From positions 1-51,620 of IMG/VR virus record IMGVR_UViG_2541047950_000002: 51,620 nt of DNA; one strand, written 5' to 3'. Origin of the DNA: a virus. Lineage: Duplodnaviria > Heunggongvirae > Uroviricota > Caudoviricetes. The notes under the pieces were generated by a model, which was given only the letters and a program-made list of their open reading frames with translations, ran no database searches and was not told where the DNA came from. A program made the translations under genes and the position numbers. Positions 955 to 23,136 of this stretch are shown here, in pieces (within the stretch, counting starts at the first letter, position 1; every line of letters starts with the position of its first letter).

Positions 955-1263
955 TTAGTGATGTTCTTTGCCCTTCTGTTTGCTTGTTCTGACCTGTTCC
1001 CACTCGATACGTCCTTCTTCTCGTCTTTTGTCTATGTATTCCGCAAGATCCTGAATATTGATGCAACGTTTTGCTTTTTGTGATGTGCCGATGCGATATG
1101 TTGGAACGGGCAACTTACAAGCGTTTGCTTTTGCTTCTGCCGTGGCTGGACTCATGCCAAAGTACTTTTGGCTAACTGCTGAGAGTTCAATGTTAGGGGT
1201 ATTGAATTCAGCCATCAGTAAAAACAAGGTGTTCATAATTTTCTCCATCAAAACCGGCTGCAC
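955..1263 (-). CDS. PrtN/excisionase-like small DNA-binding protein (putative Xis)
   Basis: 102-aa ORF at the distal end of the leftward early operon; resembles the PrtN/phage excisionase family from memory; true start may be the internal Met (MEKIM). Confidence 0.45.
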   Translation of the reverse strand: MQPVLMEKIMNTLFLLMAEFNTPNIELSAVSQKYFGMSPATAEAKANACKLPVPTYRIGTSQKAKRCINIQDLAEYIDKRREEGRIEWEQVRTSKQKGKEHH

Positions 1264-1272
1264 CCGGGAAAA

Positions 1273-1848
1273 TCATAATTCTGTGCTGGTGGCAGGAATT
1301 AATTTCTGCCAGATAGCGGAAACATATTTTGCCTGATGACGGGCATCGGCCAGGGCGTTGTGCCGTTCGCCATCGAAAGGCATGTCCATTTTGGGGTCGA
1401 ATCCGATAGAACGCCCAAGCGTAACGATCGTGCGTACATCGTGGTCATTCCAGTATGCCCACGGGCAGATTTGTCCTGCTCGCTCATAAGCTCCACGTAA
1501 AATTACGTTGTCGAAGGTGGCCCCGTTACCCCAGACTTTTAAATATTTCGTATTGGCTGCGTGCCGGTTAATGAAATGATTTAGTTCTGAGAGAGCATCG
1601 CTGATCGACAAAGTATCATCAATACAGATTGCAGCTCGTGCTTCAGGGCTTTGTTTCAACCACCACAGGATGGTATCGCCGTCAGGTGTAGCTCCTTGCC
1701 CCATAGCACTTTCCAGGCTAACAACCGTATAGAATTCTTGTCCGATGTCTCCGGTTTCTGGAGTGAAGAACACCGCGCCAATGGAAACGATCGGTGCATC
1801 CTTATTTTTCCCCATCGTCTCAAGGTCGATCATTAAGTTGTTCATCAC
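1273..1848 (-). CDS. DEDDh-type 3'-5' exonuclease (DnaQ-like)
   Basis: 191 aa; D-x-E motif in MIDLETMG and H-x4-D motif in HNALADA typical of DEDDh exonucleases. Confidence 0.7.
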   Translation of the reverse strand: MMNNLMIDLETMGKNKDAPIVSIGAVFFTPETGDIGQEFYTVVSLESAMGQGATPDGDTILWWLKQSPEARAAICIDDTLSISDALSELNHFINRHAANTKYLKVWGNGATFDNVILRGAYERAGQICPWAYWNDHDVRTIVTLGRSIGFDPKMDMPFDGERHNALADARHQAKYVSAIWQKLIPATSTEL

Positions 1849-2579
1849 TTCACCTCCTGCGGCGGTTCCGGTAGCGGCATCCAGTGAGTTGCTTGCTCAA
1901 TACCATTACCCGGCTTAATCGTTGCATCTCCGCGCCGAAAGGTGCTTCCGGTATAGCGTGCGGAGCATATTAGCGGTTCAACCAGAGAGCTATCGAAATT
2001 CACCGAAATAAGCACGTTCTGGCCCTTTTCAGGCATTTGATCACTACAGCTTATCCAACTATCCGGAGTTCCCGGAGAGTTGCCATTTACATCGAAGTTT
2101 GGCTCTGCGTCCTGAACCAGGAGGATGTAACCATTCTTGGCTGTATCAAGTTCTAACGCCTCGGTGACGGTGCCGAAATAGCGATTACCTAAATCAGCAT
2201 CACAAGTGCTTACATCAATGGAAACTTCCATGCCTTCGATTAATTCTGGCAAGTTGTAAGTTTGGCTTACAGGTTGGCTACCCTGAAGCATGGCGGCGCG
2301 GTGACACCAGATAATCCAGCCAAGCGCCATATCCCATGCCATGTATTCTCTATCGCCATTTTTTGCCCTACGGCGATCTACAGATTCCCCGAAACGCTTC
2401 TCCATAAATAATTCATAGGCTGCTCGTTCATCCGATACTGCTGCCAGTGATGCCAGTGCAATTTTTAATGCGGTAAGCATGTTGTTTTGATCTTCATCGA
2501 GTCCGAACGGTATTTCATCCCGTGCTGACTCAATGCTGGTAATCGTGTTCTGTAACCATTCTTTGGTAAGAGTATTCAT
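1845..2579 (-). CDS. conserved phage early protein with DUF551-like C-terminus
   Basis: 244-aa ORF; start overlaps the downstream gene; C-terminal THWMPLPEPP resembles the DUF551 signature as recalled. Confidence 0.45.
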   Translation of the reverse strand: MNTLTKEWLQNTITSIESARDEIPFGLDEDQNNMLTALKIALASLAAVSDERAAYELFMEKRFGESVDRRRAKNGDREYMAWDMALGWIIWCHRAAMLQGSQPVSQTYNLPELIEGMEVSIDVSTCDADLGNRYFGTVTEALELDTAKNGYILLVQDAEPNFDVNGNSPGTPDSWISCSDQMPEKGQNVLISVNFDSSLVEPLICSARYTGSTFRRGDATIKPGNGIEQATHWMPLPEPPQEVK

Positions 2580-2581
2580 AA

Positions 2582-2773
2582 CTATTTCACTTTAATCTCA
2601 ATATTTCGCAGCTTTAGCTCTACTGGCAGGTCTGACTTTCCTGTTAATGCTAATGCGAGATTTTCAGGAGTAATGAGAGCAGTTATTGTTTTCCCCCTCG
2701 CCAGACGAATAATCATTCGTATCTCGCAATCGTCACATGCTCCCGGTCGAACAATTGAGATTTGTCCGTTCAT
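2582..2773 (-). CDS. hypothetical small phage protein, 63 aa
   Basis: ORF tightly packed in the leftward operon. Confidence 0.3.
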   Translation of the reverse strand: MNGQISIVRPGACDDCEIRMIIRLARGKTITALITPENLALALTGKSDLPVELKLRNIEIKVK

Positions 2774-2774
2774 C

Positions 2775-3329
2775 TCACTTCCCCTTCACACCAATGTTGG
2801 CGGCGGCGCGCTCGGCTTCACTTTGTTCCCAAAACCACTTGTGAAGCGCCATAAGCTTTTCGTCAATCGGTGCATATTTGCGATTAAAGTAGGCCTGAGC
2901 ATCTTTCTCAGATTCGTCCGGTAATTCGCCAGGGCCAAACAGTGTGTTATAAATCCATGCCAGTCCGCTCTTAGCGTCGCCAGTTGCCTGCCATTCGATA
3001 ATGGCAGCCTGCATGACCAGAATGTTTTTCCCGATTAATAGGTCCAGTTCTTTGTACCGGTTGCGGATGTATGCATTCTCGCTTTGTAATTTTGCGTTTC
3101 GCTTCTCTGCTGCTTCCAGCTCATCCAGCAGCGCCAAGACGGTGGCAGGATTGGCGGCGGCTATGAATCGTTTATTGGCGCGATTATCTGGTCCTGAGCA
3201 TGATGCTATGTAGTAATTGGCGTTCAGTCCGGCATCGGCAATTACTCCATGGTAGTCATCAGCACACCATTCGCCTGGTGTTGCATTTTCTGCCGCCAGT
3301 CGCAGAGCCTGATAGTTAATCTCGCTCAC
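2775..3329 (-). CDS. Ead/Ea22-like early protein
   Basis: 184-aa ORF; N-terminal MSEINYQALR..ATPGEW and coiled-coil middle recall the Ea22-like family. Confidence 0.45.
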   Translation of the reverse strand: MSEINYQALRLAAENATPGEWCADDYHGVIADAGLNANYYIASCSGPDNRANKRFIAAANPATVLALLDELEAAEKRNAKLQSENAYIRNRYKELDLLIGKNILVMQAAIIEWQATGDAKSGLAWIYNTLFGPGELPDESEKDAQAYFNRKYAPIDEKLMALHKWFWEQSEAERAAANIGVKGK

Positions 3330-3565
3330 TGGTTGCCTCCTTTACGGATCTGCGCTGCGATGCGCGAAAAAAAAGACTCCCGCGTATGACTGTTAAGAGC
3401 TGGCGCGAACGCTGCGTTAAGAACGGCAGCATCACAGCCGTCATCGATATAGAGCGCAATTTTTTTCTCCAGGCGCGCTTTGGCTTCCTGCAACTGCATA
3501 CCCCGGCACGCACGCGGGATATACTCAGCAATTTGAGCGATAGATTTTTCGTTCTGTTTAAACAT
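3326..3565 (-). CDS. hypothetical phage protein, 79 aa
   Basis: ORF with overlapping start/stop in the leftward operon. Confidence 0.35.
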   Translation of the reverse strand: MFKQNEKSIAQIAEYIPRACRGMQLQEAKARLEKKIALYIDDGCDAAVLNAAFAPALNSHTRESFFSRIAAQIRKGGNQ

Positions 3566-3761
3566 GCTTCACCTCGATAGGCTTGATGCTGTCGATCAGC
3601 AGTCGGCGGCGCGTATTTTCTGCAAAGTGGCGGCGTCCGGTTTCTTTGTGGTAAAACTCGTTTTTTCCGACGACCCACATCCGCTTTGTCTGGTGCAGTT
3701 TTTTTACCTGCGGACCGTCTCGGGTGATAACAATTCCTGTATGAGTTTTTATCACGCTCAT
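3558..3761 (-). CDS. hypothetical phage protein, 67 aa
   Basis: ORF with overlapping start/stop in the leftward operon. Confidence 0.35.
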   Translation of the reverse strand: MSVIKTHTGIVITRDGPQVKKLHQTKRMWVVGKNEFYHKETGRRHFAENTRRRLLIDSIKPIEVKHV

Positions 3762-4120
3762 TTCTTATTCTCCGGTGCTTTCGGCATTACTGCCCAGTGA
3801 GTGATATTGACGTTTTCAAGGTCCCCGACCTGAAATGTCCACTGCCATTCTCCGGTTTCTTTTTGTCCCCAGGTGTACCAGAGAGAACGCCAGCCAATTA
3901 GCCAGCCTTCTCCGTTAGCATCAAATAACAGAACACTTTCATTTGCTGGTGGCAGTTCAGCTGACACTGGTATTATTTTGTTTTCCAGTGCCGTACATTT
4001 AGCTTCAAGCGCATCGAATTTACGTACCAGGTACTCAGCATTTGTTTCGTTCACTTTCAGATCTCGCGGTACACATTTCCCGCGAAGAAACCCTTCCATT
4101 TCGAAAACATTCATGCGCAT
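3758..4120 (-). CDS. YfdS-like phage protein, 120 aa
   Basis: Size and position match the CPS-53 yfdS slot; C-terminal THWAVMP is DUF551-like. Confidence 0.45.
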   Translation of the reverse strand: MRMNVFEMEGFLRGKCVPRDLKVNETNAEYLVRKFDALEAKCTALENKIIPVSAELPPANESVLLFDANGEGWLIGWRSLWYTWGQKETGEWQWTFQVGDLENVNITHWAVMPKAPENKK

Positions 4121-4647
4121 TTGCGTAACTCCGATAACTCGTTAAAACGTTCCATAAACATCCCGTAGGCATGGCCTGGTGACAGTGGAATAACTTTGAA
4201 CATCTCTGTCGCCGGGATACCTTCCAGTACAGGCCAGAAAGACCCATCATCAAGCCCGAGATCGCGGCGTTCGGTTGCCAGCATAATGAGATCGGCATAT
4301 TTCACTGGCGTGCTCATAACAGGAGGTAACCCGTATTTCTCACGGATTACGGCGTCTATTTTTTCTTCCATCCGTTTATAGTCAGGAAGAAGGCGTTTCA
4401 GTGGTGCGGGGATGTCCTGGCAATATGCTTCTGTTGCATCATGCATTAACGCTTCAAAAGCAAATTCCTGCGGTACCAGCTGGCTGCAAAGCACCGCATG
4501 TTGGGCGACGCTGTAGAAGTGTGAAAGATGTCCTGCAAAGCGACAGATATTTGAAAGGGAAACCGCGATATCGTTAATAACGATGTCGTCTTTATTTATC
4601 CTGTCATAATAAAAATGCTTCCCGGAAAAAGTTTTAATAAATGACAT
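4111..4647 (-). CDS. yfdR: HD-domain phosphohydrolase (YfdR-like 5'-deoxynucleotidase family)
   Basis: H..HD..D motifs (AQHAVL, LMHDATEAY, KYADL); 178 aa from the internal Met MSFIKT; the ORF track extends the frame to 4674. Confidence 0.6.
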   Translation of the reverse strand: MSFIKTFSGKHFYYDRINKDDIVINDIAVSLSNICRFAGHLSHFYSVAQHAVLCSQLVPQEFAFEALMHDATEAYCQDIPAPLKRLLPDYKRMEEKIDAVIREKYGLPPVMSTPVKYADLIMLATERRDLGLDDGSFWPVLEGIPATEMFKVIPLSPGHAYGMFMERFNELSELRKCA

Positions 4648-4774
4648 TTTGTTCTCCACGTATATGCGCTGCACCGCGCTGAATTCTGGTAAAAGGAAGC
4701 CCTCACCATCCGGTGATTATTGAGTTAATTACGTTTCCATAAATGCCCCCGCAGGGGCATTTGCAGTAATGAAA

Positions 4775-5599
4775 TCAGGCGGTGAAAGTACCAATAAAGG
4801 TTTCTACTTTGCTGTCTTTGAATTTCTCAACAAGCAGATCACGAAATTCGTTAGCCATTTCTTCCTGCACCGCTTCCAGCTGAATAATGCGCAGAACCAG
4901 TACAGGACGATCGCCAGTGATAATGCTGAGGCGTAATTTAAACGGACGTTCTTTCAGACCTTCAAACGGAACGCATTTAAATTCAAATGCCACTGGCATA
5001 ATGTCTTTGGTCTTCGCTTCGACAGACTCCATCAGGGAGCGTTTGCCGCTGAAGTCATTGTCTTCAAAATCAGCGGTCTGGTTTGCTTCAATCGTGATTT
5101 TACGGACTGCCGCAGCCGCTTTTGTTGCCTGAATAGCGTCACCATTAGCATCAAAGCCCACAAGGTAGTCGGCCCAGTCTTCGATCCATTCTGCCAGTGA
5201 TTTCTGGGAGTTACGCTCGCCATTAACAGACAACAGAGCAGAGAACGGTGCTGTCTTTTTCAGTTTGAGAGTGGCGGTGTTATCTGCGTGACCTGGTTCA
5301 TCAATAGTACCCAGGTTAAGCACACTGACGGCACGCATATTATCAGCATCGATAAAGCAGCGGGTGCCTTCATCTGCAAGATCTTTAGAATAACGGGTAA
5401 AGTCATCGATGCTGGCAGTGGAAAGCGCACCACGGAAACGGAAGCGATTTAAATTAAATTTTTCCAGATCATGAATGCGGAAATTCTCAGGCAATGCCAC
5501 AGCATCGGCACCAATCTTACTGATAATTTCATTAACACCCTGAGCAGAAATAAGGGCATGGATTTGATTAATTGCGGTTGCGTCTAAGTTCTGAGACAT
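4775..5599 (-). CDS. yfdQ: YfdQ-like DUF2303 family protein
   Basis: 274-aa ORF; length and sequence recall CPS-53 YfdQ. Confidence 0.55.
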
Positions 5600-8400: not shown

Positions 8401-9560
8401 ACAGTTTAACGGCAAATAACCGTTTGTCGCAACAGCTGGTGGTCAGTGTCGCTGCACACCTGTTGTTACGGCATGAATGCAGATTACCAAATCACCTGGC
8501 TGTAAGTAACCACAGAGAACTTTACCTGACTGTGGGGGGCGAGTTGTGCAGGAACTTAACCGCTGGTTTCGTGACGGAAGAGGACTTTATGTTCATGTTA
8601 TTCGTTGGGAGCCAGAAACACAGCGCGTTATCTATCTTCGCAAAGACTACCCGCATGAGTGCTTTAGTCCTTTGTGGAAATTCAGGCGTGATTTTGTTGA
8701 GTGTGAAGGACCACCAGCATATTGATTCTGCAATTCCGGGACGTTACACTGTACCGGCACCTTATAAAGCGGGTGCCGGGATTGGCGTCCTGAAATTGAT
8801 TACTGAGCATAACCGCGCTCATGCGGTTTTTTCGTGTCATGAGCATTGCTACGCCCAAATTATGGTGGGGCGTACAGGGCCGACTTCGGTCGGGCCGGGT
8901 TCGGTAGTCTCCGGTAACGCCAACCCTGTACGTCTCACCACCTCTGTGATTGGCGTCCCATGTGGTGAGTTTTCTAAAAAACTGACTACCGGGGCTGTCA
9001 CTATGACTACTCTCCCAACCCTCTCTCAACCTGAAATTGCCATCGTTGATGGTCAGGCTGTTACATCTTCTTTGGCTGTTGCTGACTTCTTCTCTAAACG
9101 TCATGACGATGTTCTGAAAAAGATCCGCATTTTGGATTGTTCTCCAGAGTTTTGTGCCCGCAATTTTGCGGAGACATCAATTTTGGTACGCCAGCCCAAC
9201 GGCGGTACTCGCAAACTTCCTTGCTATCAAATCACCCGCGACGGTTTTGCGTTTCTTGCCATGGGCTTCACTGGTAAACGTGCTGCCCGGTTCAAAGAGG
9301 CATACATCAACGCCTTTAACCTGATGGAGAAACAGCTTTCAAAGCCCGCTGTACCGAGCGACGTTGCACATAACGCCAGCGTTCTCTGTTCCTACATTTC
9401 ATCAATTCATCAGGTCTGGCTGCAGCAGCTTTATCCTATGTTGGCAAAAGCCGAATCTCCGCTGGCTGTTAGCTTATATGACTATATTAATGATGCTTCG
9501 GCGCTGGCCTGCCTCATAAATTTGTCGCTGAACCCTTCAGAGGCAAGGGGGCGCAAATGA
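8397..9560 (+). CDS. ORF with C-terminal Rha (pRha) domain; N-terminal 200 aa unassigned (alternative start 9003)
   Basis: ATG at 8397 overlaps the upstream stop (ATGA); residues from MTTLPTLSQ (nt 9003) onward resemble Rha regulatory proteins; a second frame is also open over 8507-8722. Confidence 0.45.
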   Translation: MNSLTANNRLSQQLVVSVAAHLLLRHECRLPNHLAVSNHRELYLTVGGELCRNLTAGFVTEEDFMFMLFVGSQKHSALSIFAKTTRMSALVLCGNSGVILLSVKDHQHIDSAIPGRYTVPAPYKAGAGIGVLKLITEHNRAHAVFSCHEHCYAQIMVGRTGPTSVGPGSVVSGNANPVRLTTSVIGVPCGEFSKKLTTGAVTMTTLPTLSQPEIAIVDGQAVTSSLAVADFFSKRHDDVLKKIRILDCSPEFCARNFAETSILVRQPNGGTRKLPCYQITRDGFAFLAMGFTGKRAARFKEAYINAFNLMEKQLSKPAVPSDVAHNASVLCSYISSIHQVWLQQLYPMLAKAESPLAVSLYDYINDASALACLINLSLNPSEARGRK

Positions 9561-13279: not shown

Positions 13280-14275
13280 GTGGCCGTGAGAGCACTACTG
13301 ACCCCTGAAATTGCCCCGCGTATGGGGATCGTATTGTTCAGGCCAGGTTCAGATCTGATGCCCCTGTTTATGCAGGGGCGTGTCCTGCTGGAGCCTGAGC
13401 CGGAGCGTTATTCATCTTTCGCCAGTGGTGCCGTTCCGGCGGCATCACAACCGCTGGCGGATGATCCTGCCGTTCGGGCCGTGTTCCGCAATGAGGCAGT
13501 GATCCGTCGTGCTGGTGGCGTGGAATGTCTTGAAAGCTGGTTACTTCGTGAAAAAGGCTGCCAGTGGCCTCATTCCGACTGGCACAGCGAGAACATGACC
13601 ACAACGCGCCATGCGCCGGGCGCAATCCGTCTGTGCTGGCACTGCGATAACCAGTTGCGTGACCAGTTCACGGAACGGCTGGAATCAATGGCAACGGATA
13701 ACTGTGCCCGCTGGGTGTTGTCTGTTGTGCGTCGGGATCTCGGTTTTGATGACAGTCACGTTGTGACAATGCCGGAACTGTGCTGGTGGCTGATTCGTAA
13801 TGACCTGGCGGATGCCTTACCGGAAAGTGCAGCCCGTAAGGCACTGAGATTACCGAAGCCTGTTGTGCCGTCTGTCACCCGGGAAAGTGACCTTGTGCCT
13901 TCGGTTCCTGCCACCAGCATCATCCAGGATAAGGCGAAAAAGGTGCTGGCGCTGAAAGTGGATCCGGAGTCGCCGGAGTCTTTTATGTTACGCCCAAAAC
14001 GTCGCCGCTGGGTTAATGAAAAGTACACGCGCTGGGTTAAGACACAGCCGTGTGCATGTTGTGGAAAGCCCGCTGATGATCCCCACCACCTGATAGGTTA
14101 CGGTCAGGGTGGAATGGGAACAAAAGCGCATGACCTTTTTGTGTTGCCTTTGTGCAGAAAGCATCACGACGAGCTGCATGCGGATACCGTGGCATTTGAA
14201 GAAAAGTATGGCTCCCAGCTGGAGCTGATATTTCGTTTTATCGATCGCGCGCTGGCGATTGGTGTGCTGTCCTGA
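13280..14275 (+). CDS. DUF968/HNH-like nuclease-domain protein
   Basis: 331 aa, GTG start; C-terminal Cys/His cluster (CACCGKPADDPHH...CRKHHDELH). Confidence 0.5.
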   Translation: MAVRALLTPEIAPRMGIVLFRPGSDLMPLFMQGRVLLEPEPERYSSFASGAVPAASQPLADDPAVRAVFRNEAVIRRAGGVECLESWLLREKGCQWPHSDWHSENMTTTRHAPGAIRLCWHCDNQLRDQFTERLESMATDNCARWVLSVVRRDLGFDDSHVVTMPELCWWLIRNDLADALPESAARKALRLPKPVVPSVTRESDLVPSVPATSIIQDKAKKVLALKVDPESPESFMLRPKRRRWVNEKYTRWVKTQPCACCGKPADDPHHLIGYGQGGMGTKAHDLFVLPLCRKHHDELHADTVAFEEKYGSQLELIFRFIDRALAIGVLS

Positions 14276-14292
14276 TTTTGTGGAGAAAGTTG

Positions 14293-14673
14293 ATGCGTGA
14301 TATTCAGATGGTTCTTGAACGCTGGGGGGCATGGGCGGCAAGTGGTAACACCGGGGTGGACTATTCTCCGATCGCTGCCGGATTCAAAGGACTTTTACCA
14401 TCTGCCACTAAACCACGTCCGGCCTGCTGCGATGATGACGGACTTATCATTGAAAACTGTCTTGCTCGTCTGAAGCAGAAAAAACCTGAGGAGTATTCGC
14501 TTCTCATTGCTCATTATTTGTTGCGAATATCAAAAAGACAGATAGCCAGGACGAGAAAGAAAAGCGAAAAAGCAATACGAATTGAGATGCAGATAGCCGA
14601 AGGGTTTATTGACGGATGTTTGTCTGTGCTGGGGGTAAGACTGGAGATGGACGACTGGCTGCTAAAAAAGTAA
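14293..14673 (+). CDS. Q: late-gene antiterminator Q (phage 21/933W type)
   Basis: MRDIQMVLERWGAWAA N-terminus recalls Q of the 21/933W group; last gene of the coupled early operon, followed by a terminated short leader. Confidence 0.65.
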   Translation: MRDIQMVLERWGAWAASGNTGVDYSPIAAGFKGLLPSATKPRPACCDDDGLIIENCLARLKQKKPEEYSLLIAHYLLRISKRQIARTRKKSEKAIRIEMQIAEGFIDGCLSVLGVRLEMDDWLLKK

Positions 14674-14767
14674 AAAATGATTAGCGCGGTCCGCAAAAAG
14701 TATGTCAGTATGTTAAGAGTGGTTACTTCGCCACACAGCTTAAACCCGCCGCGAGCGGGTTTTTTTA
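14674..14767 (+). promoter_or_regulatory. late promoter/qut region with tR'-like terminator (hairpin at 14743-14767)
   Basis: Intergenic segment after Q ending in hairpin CCCGC-CGCGA-GCGGG and a T7 run. Confidence 0.5.
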
Positions 14768-14888
14768 TGGCTGAAATCGGTCCTGTACAGTAAACGCGCT
14801 GGTGGTGGTGAATACCGGTCTTTCAGCTTGCTGGCTTTTTTGACAAGAGTTATTGGTGTGTCACGTTAACCGGAAAAGGGAAAAAGAC

Positions 14889-15086
14889 ATGCTGAAACAG
14901 CAGGATATGACCGAAACCGCCAGAGTGGTGTTTAATGAATTAAGCGTCACTGAACCGGCGACAGTCGGGGAGATTGCGCAGAATACTTATCTTTCACGTG
15001 AACGCTGCCAGTTAATACTGACCCAGCTTGTTATGGCGGGTCTGGCAGACTATCAGTTCGGTTGTTACAGACGCCTTCAGTCATGA
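14889..15086 (+). CDS. hypothetical small protein, 65 aa
   Basis: ATG at 14889; ORF ends inside a terminator hairpin. Confidence 0.35.
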   Translation: MLKQQDMTETARVVFNELSVTEPATVGEIAQNTYLSRERCQLILTQLVMAGLADYQFGCYRRLQS

Positions 15087-15100
15087 AGGCTTTTTTATTT
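15073..15100 (+). terminator. rho-independent terminator
   Basis: GCCTTCA-GTCA-TGAAGGC hairpin followed by TTTTTTATTT. Confidence 0.5.
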
Positions 15101-15236
15101 GTGGTAAATGGGCGGCTGGTGGGTGTTAGGGGCACTCACCAGCCATCTGCTCATGCGTCCGGATCACAAGCAAACCTCAGGCCCACTGCTTTGCGCAAAA
15201 GCAGAATGAGCCTATCAGAGACAGGCTTAATGATCC

Positions 15237-16295
15237 ATGCTTAATACTGTAAAAATATCCAGTTGTGAGTTAATCAACGCCGACTGCCTGGAATTTATCC
15301 GGTCGTTACCCGAAAATTCTGTTGACCTGATAGTCACGGATCCGCCGTACTTTAAAGTGAAGCCTGAGGGCTGGGATAACCAGTGGAAGGGCGACGATGA
15401 TTACCTGAAGTGGCTGGACCAGTGTCTTGCGCAGTTCTGGCGGGTGCTGAAACCTGCCGGAAGTCTTTACCTGTTCTGTGGCCATCGCCTAGCATCTGAT
15501 ATCGAAATCATGATGCGTGAACGCTTCAGTGTGCTGAACCATATTATCTGGGCAAAGCCGTCCGGACGCTGGAACGGGTGCAACAAGGAAAGCCTGAGGG
15601 CGTATTTCCCCGCCACAGAGCGCATTCTGTTCGCGGAACATTATCAGGGGCCGTATCGTCCGAAAGATGCCGGGTATGAGGCGAAGGGCAGGGCACTGAA
15701 ACAGCATGTGATGGCTCCGCTGATTGCTTACTTTCGTGATGCGCGTGCTGCCCTAGGGATAACGGCAAAACAGATAGTGGATGCCACAGGAAAGAAAAAC
15801 ATGGTGTCGCACTGGTTCAGTGCCAGTCAGTGGCAACTGCCGAACGAAAGTGATTATCTGAAATTACAGGCGCTGTTTGCCCGGGTGGCAGAAGAGAAGC
15901 ATCAGCGGGGTGAACTGGAGAAGCCCCACCACCAGCTGCTGGAGACGTATACTTCACTGAACCGGCAGTATGCGGAACTGCAGAGTGAATATAAGCATCT
16001 GCGGCGGTATTTTGGCGTGACGGCGCAGGTGCCGTACACCGATGTGTGGACGCATAAACCGGTGCAGTACTATCCCGGGAAACATCCGTGCGAAAAACCG
16101 GCAGAAATGCTGCAGCAGATAATCAGCGCGAGCAGTCGTCCGGGGGACCTGGTTGCAGATTTTTTCATGGGGTCGGGTTCGACAGTCAAAGCCGCGATGG
16201 CACTGGGGCGTCGTGCAACTGGTGTTGAGCTGGAGACTGAACGTTTTGAGCAGACGGTCAGGGAAGTTCAGGATTTAGCCAGTCAGAACGGATGA
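15237..16295 (+). CDS. DNA methyltransferase (N4/N6 amino-MTase, DPPY motif)
   Basis: 352 aa; N-terminal VTDPPYF catalytic motif; C-terminal FFMGSGST AdoMet-binding motif. Confidence 0.7.
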   Translation: MLNTVKISSCELINADCLEFIRSLPENSVDLIVTDPPYFKVKPEGWDNQWKGDDDYLKWLDQCLAQFWRVLKPAGSLYLFCGHRLASDIEIMMRERFSVLNHIIWAKPSGRWNGCNKESLRAYFPATERILFAEHYQGPYRPKDAGYEAKGRALKQHVMAPLIAYFRDARAALGITAKQIVDATGKKNMVSHWFSASQWQLPNESDYLKLQALFARVAEEKHQRGELEKPHHQLLETYTSLNRQYAELQSEYKHLRRYFGVTAQVPYTDVWTHKPVQYYPGKHPCEKPAEMLQQIISASSRPGDLVADFFMGSGSTVKAAMALGRRATGVELETERFEQTVREVQDLASQNG

Positions 16296-16335
16296 TATTG
16301 CAGTATTAGTTACGTACCGTTATTATCCTGCACCC

Positions 16336-16411
16336 GGCCCTTTAGCTCAGTGGTGAGAGCGAGCGACTCATAATCGCCAGGTCGCTGGTTCAAATCCAGC
16401 AAGGGCCACCA
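16336..16411 (+). tRNA. tRNA with anticodon CAT (Met or Ile2-type)
   Basis: Manual cloverleaf: 7-bp acceptor GGCCCTT/AAGGGCC, anticodon loop CTCATAA, T-loop TTCAAAT, encoded 3' CCA. Confidence 0.8.
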
Positions 16412-16420
16412 TATCACATA

Positions 16421-16497
16421 CCGCCATTAGCTCATCGGGATAGAGCGTCAGCCTTCGAAGCTGGTTGCGCGGGGTTCGAGTCCTCGATGGCGGTCCA
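16421..16497 (+). tRNA. tRNA-Arg (anticodon TCG)
   Basis: Acceptor CCGCCAT/ATGGCGG, anticodon loop CTTCGAA, T-loop TTCGAGT, encoded CCA. Confidence 0.7.
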
Positions 16498-16510
16498 TTA
16501 TCGGTATTCA

Positions 16511-16587
16511 GCGTTGTTAGCTCAGCCGGACAGAGCAATTGCCTTCTAAGCAATCGGTCACTGGTTCGAATCCAGTACAACGCGCCA
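16511..16587 (+). tRNA. tRNA-Arg (anticodon TCT, reads AGA)
   Basis: Acceptor GCGTTGT/ACAACGC, anticodon stem ATTGC/GCAAT with loop CTTCTAA, T-loop TTCGAAT, encoded CCA. Confidence 0.8.
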
Positions 16588-16600
16588 TATTTATTTACCA

Positions 16601-16626
16601 GGCTCGCTTTTGCGGGCCTTTTTTGT
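16601..16626 (+). terminator. terminator-like hairpin after the tRNA cluster
   Basis: GGCTCGC-TTTT-GCGGGCC (one mismatch) followed by a T-run. Confidence 0.4.
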
Positions 16627-16756
16627 ATCCGCGCCACGCCCGGCGCATATCAACCACAGAGCCTTTCGGGGGTGAGCTTACGGAGTGGTCAGTGTGACTT
16701 TCTCTGTGGGCAGATCGCTCCCGGGCGTTGGCTCACCCACCTAAAGGAACGTCACG

Positions 16757-17188
16757 ATGTTTGGTATTTTCAAAAAGAAAACCCGCAGAGCAGCAGCGGA
16801 AATTAAAAAGTTTGAGAAACGTGATCTGGCACAGGCGGTTATTAATGCTGCCTACCTGGTAGCCTATGCAGATGGTGAATGTGAGGCTTCAGAGAAAGCG
16901 AAGATCGAGCAGGTCTTGCGTAACCAGCCAGCGTTGTCCGCGTTTACGTCAGAAATTAATGCTATCAGTGCCACGATCACAGGTCAGCTTGACACCAACT
17001 TTAAAATTGGTCGTCGAGCGGCGTTGCGTGAAATTGAAGATGTGAAACACGATACGCGTGAAGCGGAAGATGTGCTGGATGTGGCGGTGGCCATTGCTGA
17101 AGCAGATGGTGAAATTGAGCCGGAAGAGCGTAAGGTTCTGGAAGAGATTGCTGGTGTTCTTGGCCTGCGACTGGAGAACCACCTGTGA
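16757..17188 (+). CDS. TerB-like domain protein
   Basis: 143 aa; two ADG motifs (YADGECEASEKAKI and EADGEIEPEERKVL) typical of the TerB fold; sits where stx lies in Stx phages. Confidence 0.55.
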   Translation: MFGIFKKKTRRAAAEIKKFEKRDLAQAVINAAYLVAYADGECEASEKAKIEQVLRNQPALSAFTSEINAISATITGQLDTNFKIGRRAALREIEDVKHDTREAEDVLDVAVAIAEADGEIEPEERKVLEEIAGVLGLRLENHL

Positions 17189-17349
17189 CGGTAAAACTGC
17201 GTCTGGCCGCTGTGGCACTCCTGCTGTTTCTGGTGGTGATGGTGGATTTCACCAGCAGGATCATGTCGGTGCTGGCGGATGGAGTGCTGGTGGTCGGTAT
17301 TGTGGTGGTGCTTTTTCCTTTGGTGAAAAAGGACATGCCAGGTAGTTAG
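17185..17349 (+). CDS. small hydrophobic (membrane) protein, 54 aa
   Basis: GTG overlapping the TerB-like stop; predicted product VTVKLRLAAVALLLFLVVMV... is strongly hydrophobic; not in the ORF track. Confidence 0.3.
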   Translation: MTVKLRLAAVALLLFLVVMVDFTSRIMSVLADGVLVVGIVVVLFPLVKKDMPGS

Positions 17350-17596
17350 CCGGGTATCAGTCATGCCCCGAAAATTTTAAATGTCTCACAATTCAGACGG
17401 TTGACAGTTGTCTGTTTTGCGGGGAGTTTGTTAAAAGAAACAGGCATGGTGAATCCCCCTGAGCGGAGGGGCGACTGGTGCATTAGGTGTTATCTTTGAT
17501 ACCCAGGAAAGTAAACGCGCGGGTTTGGTGGCACCGGGCTGAACTCACCGGGAGGCACCCGGCATCATGCGCATGATGATACAGATACGCGGCTTT

Positions 17597-17622
17597 AGCC
17601 CCTCTCCGGAGGGGCTTTTATA
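17597..17622 (+). terminator. rho-independent terminator
   Basis: Perfect hairpin AGCCCCTC-TCCG-GAGGGGCT followed by TTTTATATGAATTTT. Confidence 0.6.
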
Positions 17623-17650
17623 TGAATTTTGTAAGATATGAGTAAACTAA

Positions 17651-17986
17651 TTATGGACACTGTTGTTTTAGTCCGTAAGGGCATATTTGCAGAATGCAAT
17701 GATTATTAAAGCATTCTTTCAATACGTTATCTGAATTTGCAGGACATTCCTGGCTGTTTTTGATTAAATCCCAGAATCTTTTATTGAATGGTACAACGTT
17801 GTAAATGGTTACAGGTAGCACTTTGTTATTAAGTACGATACCTGTGTGAGTCAACGTAAATATACTTTCAGGAGGTAAGAAAACATCCGATTGATACCAG
17901 ATTATTAATTTTATTTTACTCCATATGGCTGAAAAAGATATTCCGCATGATGGCTGGATAACTGTATCAATCACAATCCACTTCAT
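17651..17986 (-). CDS. orphan AT-rich protein, 111 aa, Cys-rich C-terminus; convergent to the late operon
   Basis: ATG at 17984-17986 with consensus AAGGAGG RBS on the - strand; very low GC; very AT-rich upstream region. Confidence 0.55.
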
Positions 17987-18247
17987 TTAGCCTCCTTATT
18001 TATGCTGTGCTGGTGATGTTCTGAAAAGTATAAATGATAATTTTGAATGTAAACCATAGAGCAGAATTATTTTTCTGATGTTGTTTATTGTTTATTTAAA
18101 TACAGGTTTTTTATATCCCGTCTTGTAGTTTATCCATGCATACCTGCTTTATGATGAGGTTTTCATTTAAGGTATGGTTTTGTGTTTTTTTTCTGTATTT
18201 CATGTCAGGTATTTTAAAGAATTGTTTTTAATATGGTGGAAAGAACC

Positions 18248-20215
18248 ATGGCATTTAAACACTACGATGTGGTCAGGGCGGCGTCGCCGTCAGACCTTGC
18301 GGAGCGACTGACTCAAAAACTGAAGGAGGGGTGGCAGCCATTTGGCAGCCCTGTCGCCATCACGCCTTATACCCTGATGCAGGCCATTGCGGCGGAAGGT
18401 GATGTCACCACACCTGTGGTGGTGAAGCCGTCGGATGGAGAAGGCACAGTAATCAGCGCCACCAGCGACCCGGAGTATTACTTTGTTGTGGTTCTGGCAG
18501 GGCAGTCAAATGGCATGTCGTATGGTGAAGGTCTTCCGCTGCCGGAGACATATGACCGTCCGGACCCGCGTATTAAGCAGCTGGCGCGCCGCAGTACGGT
18601 GACACCGGGCGGTGCCGCCTGTAAGTATAACGACATTATTCCGGCGGACCATTGTCTGCATGATGTGCAGGACATGAGCCGTCTTAACCATCCGAAAGCG
18701 GACCTGTCAAAGGGGCAGTACGGAACCGTGGGGCAGGGGCTGCATATCGCCAAAAAACTGCTGCCGTTTATACCGGCGAATGCGGGCATTCTGCTGGTTC
18801 CGTGCTGCCGTGGTGCTTCGGCATTCACAACGGGGGCAGACGGCACATACAGCGAATCAGCCGGTGCATCGGAAAATTCACTGCGCTGGGGTGTGGGTAA
18901 GCCGCTGTATCAGGATTTGGTGAGCCGGACTAAAGCCGCACTGGCGAAGAACCCGAAAAACCGTCTGCTTGCGGTGGTGTGGATGCAGGGAGAAGGTGAT
19001 GCGGCAGTGGGGACGCATGCGCAGCATCCGGGGCTGTTTAGTGCGATGGTGAATCAGTTCAGAACGGAGCTTGCCGGTCTGGCATCACAGAGCACAGGAG
19101 GCAGCGCATCAGCGGTACCGTGGATTTGCGGGGACACAACGTATTTCTGGAAGCAGCGTCATGCGGAAGGGTATGCATCAGTATACGGAGGGTATAAGGG
19201 GAAGGAGTCGCAGAACATTTTCTTTGTACCGTTAATGACGGATGAGAATGGTGCGAATGTGCAGACCAATAACCCGGCAGAAGACCCGGACCTGGAAACC
19301 GTCGGTTATTACGGTTCAAAGTGGCGTAATGACCAGAAGACCTGGACATCAGCAGACAGGGCCAGCCATTTCAGTTCATGGGCTCGCCGTGGGATTATTT
19401 CCGACCGTCTGGCAACGGCGATTCTGTTGCACGCCGGGAGAACCGCTGAATTCATTACCGGAAAACAGCCTGATACGGTGAAGCCCACCGGACCTTCCGG
19501 TGAAGGTCCGGAGAGAGAGGCGGAAGCCCCGGCCAGTAAGCGTACCCTGATGAGTCTGCTGGCATCCGGCGAAGACCTGGCATCACAGGGCTGGCGCTAT
19601 TATCACAAACCGGCGAGCGGAGACAGTATTGATAAAAACATCGCTGAGGCTGTGGTCAGTGATGAGGGTGCCACCGGTGGTAAGGCCCTGCAACTGAACA
19701 AACCGGAAAGCCACATCTGGTTTCTGGAGCATGATGCAGCCGGGCAGGGGGCAGAGTTACTGAAGAAAGGCGGACGTGTGAGCGTGCGGTTTAAGGTGCC
19801 GGGCTCACTGGTACAGAACCGGTTTGCCCTGGGTATTTACTGGCAGTTGTCGTCCCTGCCGGAGGGTGTGTCGCTGGCGGAGGAAGGCAACGACATGCTG
19901 ATGTCCTTCTTCCTGCAGACGGATGCGACGAACCTGAACGCGATGTACCACAAGACGCAGAATGCGAAGCTGGATACGTTCGGGGCATTTGATAACGAAT
20001 GGCACACACTGTCTTTTGAGTTTGCCGGAAACAACAGTATTCAGGTGACGCCGGTACTTGATGAGAAGCGGGGCACGCCATTCACGCTGGTGAAATCTCA
20101 GGCAACAGGGGTGGCGGATAAACTTCTGCTGACTGATATCACGAAGGTAGCAACGTATACGCTGCTGATTGACAGCGTGAAGGTGGAAGTGAACAACGCG
20201 GACGCCGCGGCATGA
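18248..20215 (+). CDS. NanS-p-like sialate O-acetylesterase (N-terminal DUF1737-like, C-terminal carbohydrate esterase)
   Basis: About 655 aa; N-terminus MAFKHYDVVRAASPSDLAERL recalls the Stx-phage NanS-p/YjhS family; same position relative to Q and S as in Stx phages. Confidence 0.65.
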   Translation: MAFKHYDVVRAASPSDLAERLTQKLKEGWQPFGSPVAITPYTLMQAIAAEGDVTTPVVVKPSDGEGTVISATSDPEYYFVVVLAGQSNGMSYGEGLPLPETYDRPDPRIKQLARRSTVTPGGAACKYNDIIPADHCLHDVQDMSRLNHPKADLSKGQYGTVGQGLHIAKKLLPFIPANAGILLVPCCRGASAFTTGADGTYSESAGASENSLRWGVGKPLYQDLVSRTKAALAKNPKNRLLAVVWMQGEGDAAVGTHAQHPGLFSAMVNQFRTELAGLASQSTGGSASAVPWICGDTTYFWKQRHAEGYASVYGGYKGKESQNIFFVPLMTDENGANVQTNNPAEDPDLETVGYYGSKWRNDQKTWTSADRASHFSSWARRGIISDRLATAILLHAGRTAEFITGKQPDTVKPTGPSGEGPEREAEAPASKRTLMSLLASGEDLASQGWRYYHKPASGDSIDKNIAEAVVSDEGATGGKALQLNKPESHIWFLEHDAAGQGAELLKKGGRVSVRFKVPGSLVQNRFALGIYWQLSSLPEGVSLAEEGNDMLMSFFLQTDATNLNAMYHKTQNAKLDTFGAFDNEWHTLSFEFAGNNSIQVTPVLDEKRGTPFTLVKSQATGVADKLLLTDITKVATYTLLIDSVKVEVNNADAAA

Positions 20216-20365
20216 TGAAAAAGGCCGCCAGCAATGAAGGAAAGGGATGAACTTTTGTCCACTACATGAATGCTGGCGGCTGGTAAAACGATCATGATGA
20301 CAGCGAAGTCTGGGTGTTTTTCTACAAAAATAAGTAAATTATGTCAACTATAACGGTGAGAAAAC

Positions 20366-20545
20366 ATGACATTTCTGAACCAGTTAATGCTGTACTTCTG
20401 TACGGCGGTCTGTGTGCTGTATCTTCTTTCGGGTGGGTACAGGGCTGTGCGCGATTTCTGGCGCAGACAGATTGATAAAAGGGCCGCTGAGAAAATCAGC
20501 GCCAGTCAGTCAGCCGGAACCAGACCCGAAGAGCCGCTCATTTAG
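20366..20545 (+). CDS. small membrane protein, 59 aa
   Basis: ATG with upstream GGTGAG; hydrophobic N-terminus; not in the ORF track. Confidence 0.3.
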   Translation: MTFLNQLMLYFCTAVCVLYLLSGGYRAVRDFWRRQIDKRAAEKISASQSAGTRPEEPLI

Positions 20546-20585
20546 TTGCAATCTTCTTTACAACACCTTTCAACGAGAAAATCCC

Positions 20586-20870
20586 ATGTCAGAAATAAAA
20601 CCCCTGGTCACTGCTGAGGCAGTGAAAGACGCGCTGCGCTCAGAAGATGTGCGTGGAGCACTGAAACAGAAAGTCCGCCAGACATTTGAAGCGCAGATAG
20701 AAGCGGAGGTGGATGCGATTCTGGATACGCTACTGGGCGAGCAGCCAGGCGAACAGCCAGAGCCGGAACCGCAACCGGAAGATATCACCTCAGAAAACGG
20801 CGATATTCAGCCCGAATCACCGGTGGTTGATGCGACTGAAGCACAACCCGAACCGGGCACAATGCTGTAA
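20586..20870 (+). CDS. hypothetical acidic protein, 94 aa
   Basis: ATG at 20586 within the longer track ORF 20412-20870; acidic Pro/Glu-rich C-terminus. Confidence 0.4.
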
Positions 20871-20946
20871 AGGTGAGTCAGGGCCATCAGTAAAGTACTG
20901 CTGGCCTTTTTCATGTTGTGAGCTTCCGGATTGCGGGAGACGGGGT

Positions 20947-21162
20947 ATGTACCAGATGGAAAAAATAACAACAGGTGTGTCATACACCACGTCAGCGGTG
21001 GGAACGGGCTACTGGTTCCTGCAGCTGCTGGACAGGGTTTCCCCGTCTCAGTGGGCGGCAATAGGCGTGCTGGGGAGTCTGCTGTTTGGTCTGCTGACGT
21101 ACCTGACGAACCTGTATTTCAAAATCAGAGAGGACCGTCGTAAGGCGGCACGGGGAGAGTAG
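20947..21162 (+). CDS. S: pinholin (S21-type class II holin) with dual-start motif
   Basis: [71 protein letters not shown] closely matches phage 21 S as recalled; Met1/Met4 dual start; GGAG RBS. Confidence 0.75.
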
Positions 21163-21759: not shown

Positions 21760-22293
21760 ATGAACGCAAAAATCAAATACGGCCTGTCAGCTGCTGTTCT
21801 GGCGCTGATTGCCGCAGGGGCTTCTGCGCCTGAAATCCTCGACCAGTTTCTGGATGAAAAAGAAGGTAACCACACCACGGCATACCGTGATGGTGTGGGT
21901 ATCTGGACCATCTGCCGTGGAGCCACCCGGGTGGATGGTAATCCTGTGATTCCTGGCATGAAGCTGTCGAAGGGGAAATGCGACCGGGTTAACGCCATTG
22001 AGCGTGATAAGGCGCTGGCATGGGTGGAGAAAAACATCAAAGTGCCACTGACTGAACCCCAGAAAGCGGGAATTGCGTCATTCTGTCCTTACAACATTGG
22101 CCCCGGTAAGTGTTTCCCGTCGACGTTTTATAAACGAATTAATGCAGGCGATCGAAAAGGTGCCTGCGAAGCGATTCGCTGGTGGATTAAGGACGGTGGC
22201 AGAGACTGCCGTATTCGCTCAAATAATTGCTACGGTCAGGTATCCCGTCGCGACCAGGAGAGTGCGCTGGCATGCTGGGGTATCGACAGGTAG
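21760..22293 (+). CDS. R: SAR endolysin (R21-type lysozyme)
   Basis: N-terminal signal-anchor-release segment (GLSAAVLALIAAGASAPE); lysozyme-like core; paired with the pinholin as in phage 21. Confidence 0.75.
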   Translation: MNAKIKYGLSAAVLALIAAGASAPEILDQFLDEKEGNHTTAYRDGVGIWTICRGATRVDGNPVIPGMKLSKGKCDRVNAIERDKALAWVEKNIKVPLTEPQKAGIASFCPYNIGPGKCFPSTFYKRINAGDRKGACEAIRWWIKDGGRDCRIRSNNCYGQVSRRDQESALACWGIDR

Positions 22294-22566
22294 CAGAATA
22301 TTTTGCTGAAAAATGACGTTGACCAACGCGGACGGATAACACGAAATCCTGCGAACTGGCAAAACCTAAGTGAATAAAGTCAGGAACATTGTTTCACGCA
22401 GAGGCACCGTAATGGTGCCTTTGGCATTTCTGCGCTTCGCACAAGCGTAAATAAACCAAAGAACCTTTCAGGATGAGCCCTGGTGGATAACCGGCAGTGG
22501 TCTGGTTAACCCTCTTTGGGCTGGTTATTCCTGTGCGCAGGGTTCATCACTAAAAGGAAATAACCG

Positions 22567-23136
22567 ATGAATATGATAACCGTGCCGTTTCACGGCGATT
22601 CTCTTTATGTGGTTAACCATAACGGCGAACCATACGTTCCCATGAAACCTGTCGTTGCGGGGATGGGGCTGGCCTGGCAATCACAGTTGGCTAAGTTAAG
22701 ACAGCGTTTTGCGTCAACTATAACGGAAATCGTTATGGTTGCTGAGGACGGGAAACGACGCAATATGGTGTCCCTGCCACTTCGAAAACTTGCAGGCTGG
22801 TTACAAACCATCAATCCCAACAAAGTAAAACCCGGAATCCGCGACAAGGTTATCCAGTATCAGGAAGAGTGCGACGATGTTCTCTATGAATACTGGACGA
22901 AGGGTTTTGTCGTTAATCCTCGTCAAATGAGCGTGATGGAAGAACTCAACCAGGCATGCGCTGACATGAAACGGGATAAAAACATTGCCAGTCTGTTTGG
23001 TACAGGGTTAAACGAATGGAAACTGGTTAAAGCCGCGCATGTATCAAAAATTCGCACGTTGATAAACGAAGCGAATCTGCTGATTGGTTTTGTCCTGGCT
23101 GATACAGGCAAAGGAAAAATCACAAAGACGGATTGA
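22567..23136 (+). CDS. AntA/AntB-type antirepressor-like protein
   Basis: 189 aa; N-terminal FHGDSLYVVNHNGEPYVPMKPVVAGMGL resembles the AntA domain as recalled; has its own upstream intergenic region. Confidence 0.5.
   Translation: MNMITVPFHGDSLYVVNHNGEPYVPMKPVVAGMGLAWQSQLAKLRQRFASTITEIVMVAEDGKRRNMVSLPLRKLAGWLQTINPNKVKPGIRDKVIQYQEECDDVLYEYWTKGFVVNPRQMSVMEELNQACADMKRDKNIASLFGTGLNEWKLVKAAHVSKIRTLINEANLLIGFVLADTGKGKITKTD

Follow-up and report, generated by a model that had tools for sequence, protein, structure and literature searches.

Phage P1 carries tciA, tciB and tciC in its C1-repressed ban operon, and the tciA and tciB names were reportedly given there in 2004. According to the GenBank record, the P1 tci names were assigned by homology. 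TerB domains are also known from the ter operon terZABCDEF, which is associated with tellurite resistance, phage inhibition and colicin resistance (R478; Klebsiella pneumoniae TerB, solved as 2JXU), and from the defense systems Dionysus, Bunzi and Shango; Dionysus combines a transmembrane (TM) protein, DinA, with a TerB protein, DinB, and a pore-former, DinC. A further point of comparison is positional, the slot in which Shiga toxin (Stx) phages carry stxAB. Here we analyze two adjacent open reading frames (ORFs), and the RNA leader in front of them, in a stretch of 51,620 nucleotides (nt) that we call the window (positions 1 to 51,620 of IMG/VR record IMGVR_UViG_2541047950_000002, a virus of the Caudoviricetes). 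The two ORFs are tciA and tciB, an already described and common phage pair. The leader is the item that may be new. The cassette is made up of these features:

16600-16625, + strand: hairpin followed by a U-run (a terminator-like site), the 5' edge of the tciAB cassette
16626-16756, + strand: structured leader of tciA (covariance model, 143.5 bits)
16757-17188, + strand: tciA, 143 amino acids, soluble TerB-domain protein (Pfam TerB, PHROG 632)
17185-17349, + strand: tciB, 54 amino acids, hydrophobic DUF3927 peptide (Pfam DUF3927, PHROG 1470 'TciB-like')

As in P1, a gene for a TerB-domain protein is followed directly by one for a 54-residue DUF3927 protein, with adjacent or overlapping frames and tRNA genes nearby. 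Unlike P1, to which the annotation of tciC is confined, the window lacks this gene, and no + strand ORF of at least 30 amino acids lies between 17349 and 17415. The P1 pair belongs to an early operon whereas the pair described here lies in what appears to be a Q-dependent late operon, and a covariance model search found no structured leader in P1. With the ter operon the locus shares a domain that spans the whole protein, the helical fold class and the reported membrane association of TerB, but the flanking genes (Q, methylase, tRNAs, IraM-like ORF, esterase, DUF1378) include no ter gene, and the partner of tciA encodes a 54-residue DUF3927 peptide instead of TerC, TerD, TerE or TerZ. Dionysus, Bunzi and Shango likewise combine a TerB domain with a membrane protein; here, however, no helicase or ATPase gene, no gene for a lipid-binding TM TerB protein and no pore-forming toxin gene is adjacent, and tciAB is phage-encoded, virulent phages included. 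Like stxAB, the cassette is positioned between Q (with or without tRNAs) and an STnc100-like RNA, nanS-p (yjhS) and the holin gene, and late read-through is implied for both; the cargo itself is unrelated, and tciAB comes with a 5' hairpin and a structured leader of its own, neither of which turned up when the Stx1 phage locus was searched. A reading made from the letters of the window without database searches (the sequence-only reading) could not place the two ORFs in any described system. They have such a place, as the tciA/tciB pair of P1, as families PHROG 632 and 1470 and as proteins with RefSeq names.

The tciA ORF begins with ATG, with AAAGGAA 8 nt upstream, and its product is a full-length TerB homologue. 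It matches Pfam TerB PF05099 over residues 26-138 (E=1.4e-16; 61 bits against a cut-off of 24.4) and PHROG 632 ('tellurite resistance') over its full length (E=1.8e-69), and the family profile matches the solved Klebsiella TerB structure 2JXU over residues 13-137 (E=1.2e-14). The AlphaFold model is an all-helical bundle (predicted local distance difference test, pLDDT, 88.4; predicted template modelling score, pTM, 0.83), and the structures closest to it are the TerB-like entries 2H5N and 2OU3. There are two ADG motifs, A38-D39-G40 and A116-D117-G118; across 22 homologues D117, G118 and E124 never vary, and D39 and G40 hardly do. The Pfam and 2JXU matches, the model and the conserved aspartate and glycine residues all uphold the description of tciA in the sequence-only reading as encoding a 143-residue TerB-fold protein with two ADG motifs. 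Identity to two P1 TciA variants is 42-52%. The median ratio of nonsynonymous to synonymous substitution rates (dN/dS) is 0.03 for tciA.

The description of tciB as encoding a 54-residue hydrophobic peptide whose ORF overlaps the tciA stop was likewise accurate. The overlap is 4 nt long because the GTG start of tciB sits inside the sequence GTGA. TciB matches Pfam DUF3927 PF13064 (E=3e-16) and PHROG 1470 ('TciB-like inhibition of cell division or resistance to colicin'; E=1.4e-24), is 43% identical to P1 TciB, and is hydrophobic with both ends basic. The family is characterized by a central VDFTS..S..ADG motif and a proline near the C-terminus, both of which are conserved. It is a very small family: a search of 1.84 billion proteins yielded only 51 representative clusters at E<=1e-3. 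The median dN/dS of tciB is 0.29.

The pair is widespread. A megablast search with the 593 nt of tciAB matched 2,727 places in 807 of 5,426 complete Escherichia coli genomes (15%). A carrier genome has 4 copies at the median and at most 8, and in 29 of the 30 records listed both genes lay under the match. Strains of serotype O157:H7 have 3-5 copies, found between tRNAs and a SASA esterase. GenBank annotates tciA and tciB at the matching position of the lambdoid phage JLK-2012, RefSeq names the two products 'tellurite resistance TerB family protein' and 'DUF3927 family protein', and a 2026 preprint lists TerB (PF05099) among the most frequently conserved genes of these prophage regions. The possibility had been raised with the original proposal that this might be a ubiquitous characterized phage gene; it is ubiquitous and named but not characterized.

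The two genes are also conserved together. The DUF3927 profile matches the ORF immediately after TciA in the window, JLK-2012, an O157 prophage, CharmingMan and two P1 variants, and also in the virulent N4-like phages Pollock and FSL SP-076; for the jumbo Erwinia phage ChrisDB the match is weak (E=4e-4), and in the jumbo Salmonella phage pSal-SNUABM-04 an annotated DUF3927 gene adjoins the TerB gene. TciB directly follows TciA for 88 of 94 TciA ORFs (92 loci), with the 4-nt overlap present in 84 of these 88. In a set with one genome per species, TciB is found at 15 of 20 TciA loci, among them loci of Franconibacter, Pantoea, Pseudescherichia, Buttiauxella, Serratia, Pectobacterium and an Aeromonadaceae metagenome-assembled genome, while the loci of more distant relatives in Pseudomonas, Paracoccus and Marinomonas lack it. 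By these comparisons, tciA and tciB form a co-conserved, translationally coupled pair in which both genes are under purifying selection, and the proposal of a two-gene module stands in this respect.

At a locus of Ca. Pantoea communis (2501-4585) we observed three tandem TerB-family ORFs without TciB, the first of them with a diverged leader. The cassette lies within or beside tRNA clusters in P1, D6-like, jumbo and lambdoid phages (locus coordinates: P1 1616-3276, ChrisDB 976-4510, pSal-SNUABM-04 191-655, JLK-2012 4756-4989), and tRNA-Asn and tRNA-Thr precede tciAB in JLK-2012 as well as in P1. A general linkage of tciAB to tRNA genes was rejected, as just 4 of the 20 species-representative loci show it and both N4-like phages lack it.

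The tciA leader comprises the 131 nt between the hairpin and U-run at 16600-16625 and the tciA start codon, and it is almost invariant across genera. Leaders share 74-98% identity with that of the window, whereas the third codon positions of the adjoining tciA share 31-77%; in CharmingMan and Klebsiella phage 5 LV-2017 a tciA of just 52% identity comes with a leader of 82-83%. Seven of eight leaders have stops in all three frames, and no frame is free of stops in more than two. The proposed fold, worked out by eye and by counting, has the following pairing elements. P0 is a hairpin whose loop pairs with a downstream strand to form PK1; helix P1 has 8 base pairs (CCACAGAG / CUCUGUGG); helix P2 (GGGUGAGC / GCUCACCC) has strands that interleave with those of helix P1 and PK1, which gives the fold a pseudoknot topology; and P3 is a small hairpin. 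P2 can be extended by pairing between a conserved CCUUU (16661-16665) and AAAGG (16743-16747), the Shine-Dalgarno sequence. The covariance model was built on PK1, helix P1 and P3, with P0, P2 and the anti-Shine-Dalgarno pairing outside it, and found 27 copies in 40 sources. In pair counts made on the same sequences from which the structure had been derived, standard pairs filled 90.1% of cells, against 80.7 ± 0.7% in 500 shuffles (none of which reached the observed value) and 37-49% when the partner was slid by 1-3 columns; 20 of 35 pairs were changed on both sides, against 9.5 ± 1.5 in the shuffles and 4-12 in the slid controls. Compensatory changes are present in every helix, and the frequent G-U pairs point to a + strand RNA. 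The hairpin at 16600-16625 accompanies the cassette even where no tRNAs precede it, and its stem covaries across genera. No family in Rfam 15 matched the leader at its gathering score; the best hits reached at most 18 bits, against thresholds of at least 40, and are at chance level.

The window holds a second copy of this element in front of another gene:

22421-22566, + strand: second leader copy (covariance model, 112 bits)
22567-23136, + strand: Ant-like gene (P22_AR_N and ORF11CD3 domains), its start adjoining the second leader copy

The second copy is a paralogue of the tciA leader, the element being about 135 nt long; it too follows a hairpin and U-run and ends at a start codon. Elsewhere, relatives of the leader precede KilA-N genes (ST104, Klebsiella phage ST11-VIM1phi8.1 and JLK-2012), a Rha gene (Salmonella phage 103203_sal4), HNH_3 genes (Dewey and CharmingMan) and, in jumbo phages, tciA. 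The covariance model did not find the leader in the N4-like phages, at the distant TciA loci or, as mentioned above, in P1 and the Stx1 phage locus searched. Like riboswitches, RNA thermometers and protein-responsive operators that sequester a Shine-Dalgarno sequence, the leader has a covarying fold of several helices extending up to the start codon, with its conserved anti-Shine-Dalgarno CCUUU facing AAAGG. Unlike metabolite riboswitches, it precedes unrelated genes (TerB, P22_AR_N, KilA-N, Rha and HNH_3). The simplest reading would make the leader a shared translational lock for late-operon accessory genes. On a broader view, to which we give somewhat less than even weight, both copies would belong to an undescribed pseudoknotted cis-regulatory RNA family that, in lambdoid, P22-like and jumbo phages, separates a terminator hairpin from the start codon of an accessory gene (TerB, Ant/P22_AR_N, KilA-N, Rha, HNH) and locks the ribosome-binding site until a ligand, a protein or a condition of late infection opens it.

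Two other ideas about the leader were not upheld. A ribozyme like that of hepatitis delta virus (HDV) was considered, since the crossing of helices P1 and P2 follows the same order of strands. It was rejected on examination by eye: the leader has a long joiner between P2 and P3 and no conserved C before the 3' strand of P2; moreover, no P1.1 is possible because L3 is 3 nt long, and the leader has no ribozyme match in Rfam. The window also encodes, at 8757-8945 (+ strand), isrK (RF01394, 59 bits) followed by a C4 antisense RNA (RF01695, 82 bits), a P1/Gifsy-type, immI-like regulatory RNA pair. As trans regulators of the leaders these RNAs are not supported; with both leaders, duplex energies were within or near the range of 40 mononucleotide shuffles (z values of -0.4 to -2.0).

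The surroundings of the cassette were annotated from the DUF968 gene upstream of Q to the lysis genes:

13280-14275, + strand: DUF968 protein
14278-14673, + strand: antiterminator Q (Pfam Phage_antitermQ, E=1.6e-52), start of the late operon that holds tciA-tciB
14742-14762, + strand: tR'-like intrinsic terminator 69 nt past Q, with an 8-base-pair GC-rich stem and a T-run
14853-15086, + strand: ORF of 77 amino acids after the tR'-like terminator, without a Pfam match
15073-15090, + strand: second terminator-like site (terminator scan)
15237-16295, + strand: N6/N4 DNA methylase
16336-16587, + strand: three tRNA genes with anticodons CAT, TCG and TCT (ARAGORN and Rfam tRNA)
17415-17627, + strand: STnc100 small RNA (sRNA) gene (Rfam RF02076, 139.4 bits against a gathering score of 47; model positions 1-206 of 206)
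17651-17986, - strand: IraM-like anti-adapter, an antisense ORF of 111 amino acids (RefSeq product name in an identical locus; PHROG 4407)
18233-20215, + strand: NanS-p-like esterase with DUF1737, SASA and DUF6645 domains (Pfam; RefSeq 'SASA family carbohydrate esterase')
20366-20545, + strand: DUF1378 protein
past DUF1378, + strand: holin, then lysozyme (21760-22293)

The order Q, tRNAs, cargo, NanS-p-like esterase, holin had been taken to mark the position of the Shiga toxin genes, and this holds. In the Stx1 phage BP-4795 the order is Q, stxA1, stxB1, an STnc100-like segment, yjhS (nanS-p) and S, and in JLK-2012, of the same genus, it is Q, tRNAs, tciA, tciB, yjhS and S; because these orders match, 'Shiga-toxin-locus equivalent' is a correct description. 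The tRNA cluster is of the ileZ-argN-argO type of Stx-type phages, its first member being named tRNA-Ile by RefSeq in an identical locus, and an STnc100-like RNA is also found downstream of stx in Stx phages. In this lambdoid prophage the tciAB cassette fills the slot between the pR'-proximal tRNAs and STnc100/nanS-p, where Stx phages carry stxAB, and the esterase forms the downstream border of the cargo slot. The IraM-like ORF is likely to be a separate, independently expressed cargo gene between STnc100 and the esterase; promoter-like sites for it were found on the minus strand at 18094-18066 and 17935-17908.

The strong terminator that the sequence-only reading had placed at the end of the pair was reassigned. 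The terminator at 17597-17616, with its T-run, forms the 3' end of STnc100, 248 nt past the tciB stop, and the terminator scan found none directly 3' of tciB. Three terminator-like sites lie upstream of tciAB, at 14742, 15073 and 16600. The first of them is the expected target of Q antitermination, judging by its position. A scan of the + strand from 14000 to 21000 revealed no sigma-70-like site, and none was apparent by eye in the conserved leader. With this gene order, the upstream terminators and no promoter-like site on the + strand, late, Q-dependent expression of tciAB is plausible, as had been proposed, and it is from these features that we infer its timing.

For the function of the pair we favor, with about even confidence, a role at the inner membrane during the lytic cycle, in which TciB would act as TciA's membrane partner. 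This reading is preferred because virulent N4-like and jumbo phages carry the pair, because the P1 ban operon is repressed by C1, and because the window combines upstream terminators, the lack of a promoter-like site and a leader predicted to sequester the ribosome-binding site. The cassette would be silent in the lysogen, where the upstream terminators would stop transcription and the leader would sequester the ribosome-binding site, and it would be transcribed only once Q antiterminates the late operon. In the infected cell, TciB would then recruit or partner TciA at the inner membrane, and the TerB domain, an acidic and putatively metal-binding helical bundle, may buffer or sense envelope or ion stress, so that the cell stays productive until programmed lysis, for example in the face of superinfecting phage, pore-forming colicins or membrane-targeting abortive-infection effectors. 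The pair would in this way serve the phage in lytic growth rather than act as a defense system of the lysogen. Published work on TerB proteins describes membrane association and amphitropic behavior and has proposed membrane surveillance. That the precise activity is to protect the envelope or membrane potential of the infected cell against superinfection, colicins or abortive-infection effectors is a more doubtful suggestion.

Several observations weigh against the lytic-cycle reading. The timing of expression is deduced from gene order. AlphaFold predicts TciB as a single continuous helix (residues 2-49), which does not settle its topology, and contact between TciA and TciB is putative. Relatives of TciA without TciB are found in Pseudomonas, Vibrio, Marinomonas and Paracoccus. 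Two E. coli proteins, P0124 (197 amino acids) and P0186 (170 amino acids), contain TciA and TciB in one ORF with both Pfam domains, but as proof of contact they were rejected, as they look like frameshift joins at the 4-nt overlap; another candidate fusion, P0251, is an unrelated chimera. We found no published experiment on the function of TciA or TciB in the accessible literature. A paper on D6-like plasmid-prophages remarks of the predicted resistances that it 'would be necessary to test' them (PMC6799933), and the genome note on Pollock states that the role in a lytic phage is not known (PMC4319500). In P1, tciA, tciB and tciC were scored non-essential by CRISPR interference, so any benefit would be conditional.

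That the pair is instead expressed in the lysogen and excludes phages or colicins, as a lysogenic-conversion defense resembling ter Phi/PacB or Shango, Bunzi and Dionysus, seems unlikely. TerB domains do occur in validated defense systems, for which membrane surveillance has been proposed, and the slot that the cassette occupies is one where lysogenic-conversion genes are carried. No direct support was obtained, however, for the phage-exclusion module envisaged in the sequence-only reading. PADLOC (PADLOC-DB v2), run on TciA, TciB and two neighboring ORFs, gave only a marginal match of TciA to PDC-S48 (E=0.002 over 35 residues) and nothing for TciB; there is no adjacent helicase, ATPase or pore-forming partner; and the upstream terminators, the lack of a promoter-like site and the predicted sequestration of the Shine-Dalgarno sequence all argue against expression in the lysogen. 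The occurrence of the pair in strictly virulent N4-like and jumbo phages argues in the same direction, since a module that protects the lysogen would not be expected there. The position of the cassette in the late operon, a few kilobases upstream of the holin gene and, in CharmingMan, immediately before the holin region, could suggest a part in lysis timing, in which TciB, whose size and hydrophobicity resemble those of holin- or antiholin-like peptides, modulates holin triggering or the membrane potential and TciA is a cytoplasmic regulator. We consider this improbable, as the P1 pair is in the ban operon, the N4-like pair lies among replication genes (dUTPase, replication initiator, ATPase) far from the lysis genes, and TciB has no similarity to holin families in Pfam or PHROGs.

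The full-length homology of TciA to bona fide TerB and the conserved DG...E motifs would also fit a role like that of TerB of the ter operon, altering the handling of tellurite, Mn or Ca, perhaps through host TerC-family proteins. Such a role in metal or oxyanion homeostasis is improbable: no terC, terD, terE or terZ homologue was found near the pair in any locus examined, the operon is incomplete (PMC6799933), and nothing connects a phage late gene to tellurite. Finally, the non-essentiality of tciABC in P1 might suggest that the ORFs are functionless and are hitch-hiking or decaying. This is hardly credible, being contradicted by the strong purifying selection on both genes (dN/dS 0.03 and 0.29) and by the retention of the pair in four unrelated phage lineages and many genera with the 4-nt coupling kept.

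The gene pair itself is ordinary, and what it needs is the name tciA/tciB and not a new category. As one of the commonest cargoes at the Shiga toxin position of E. coli prophages, shared with virulent phages, tciAB is nevertheless a useful target for study. The leader could matter more than the pair, and it would offer a regulatory element open to direct testing. If the proposed lock is real, a fold that sequesters the ribosome-binding site and is common to unrelated accessory genes would explain the silence of these genes in lambdoid lysogens, and the leader would be a shared translational switch for potentially toxic cargo genes of phages.

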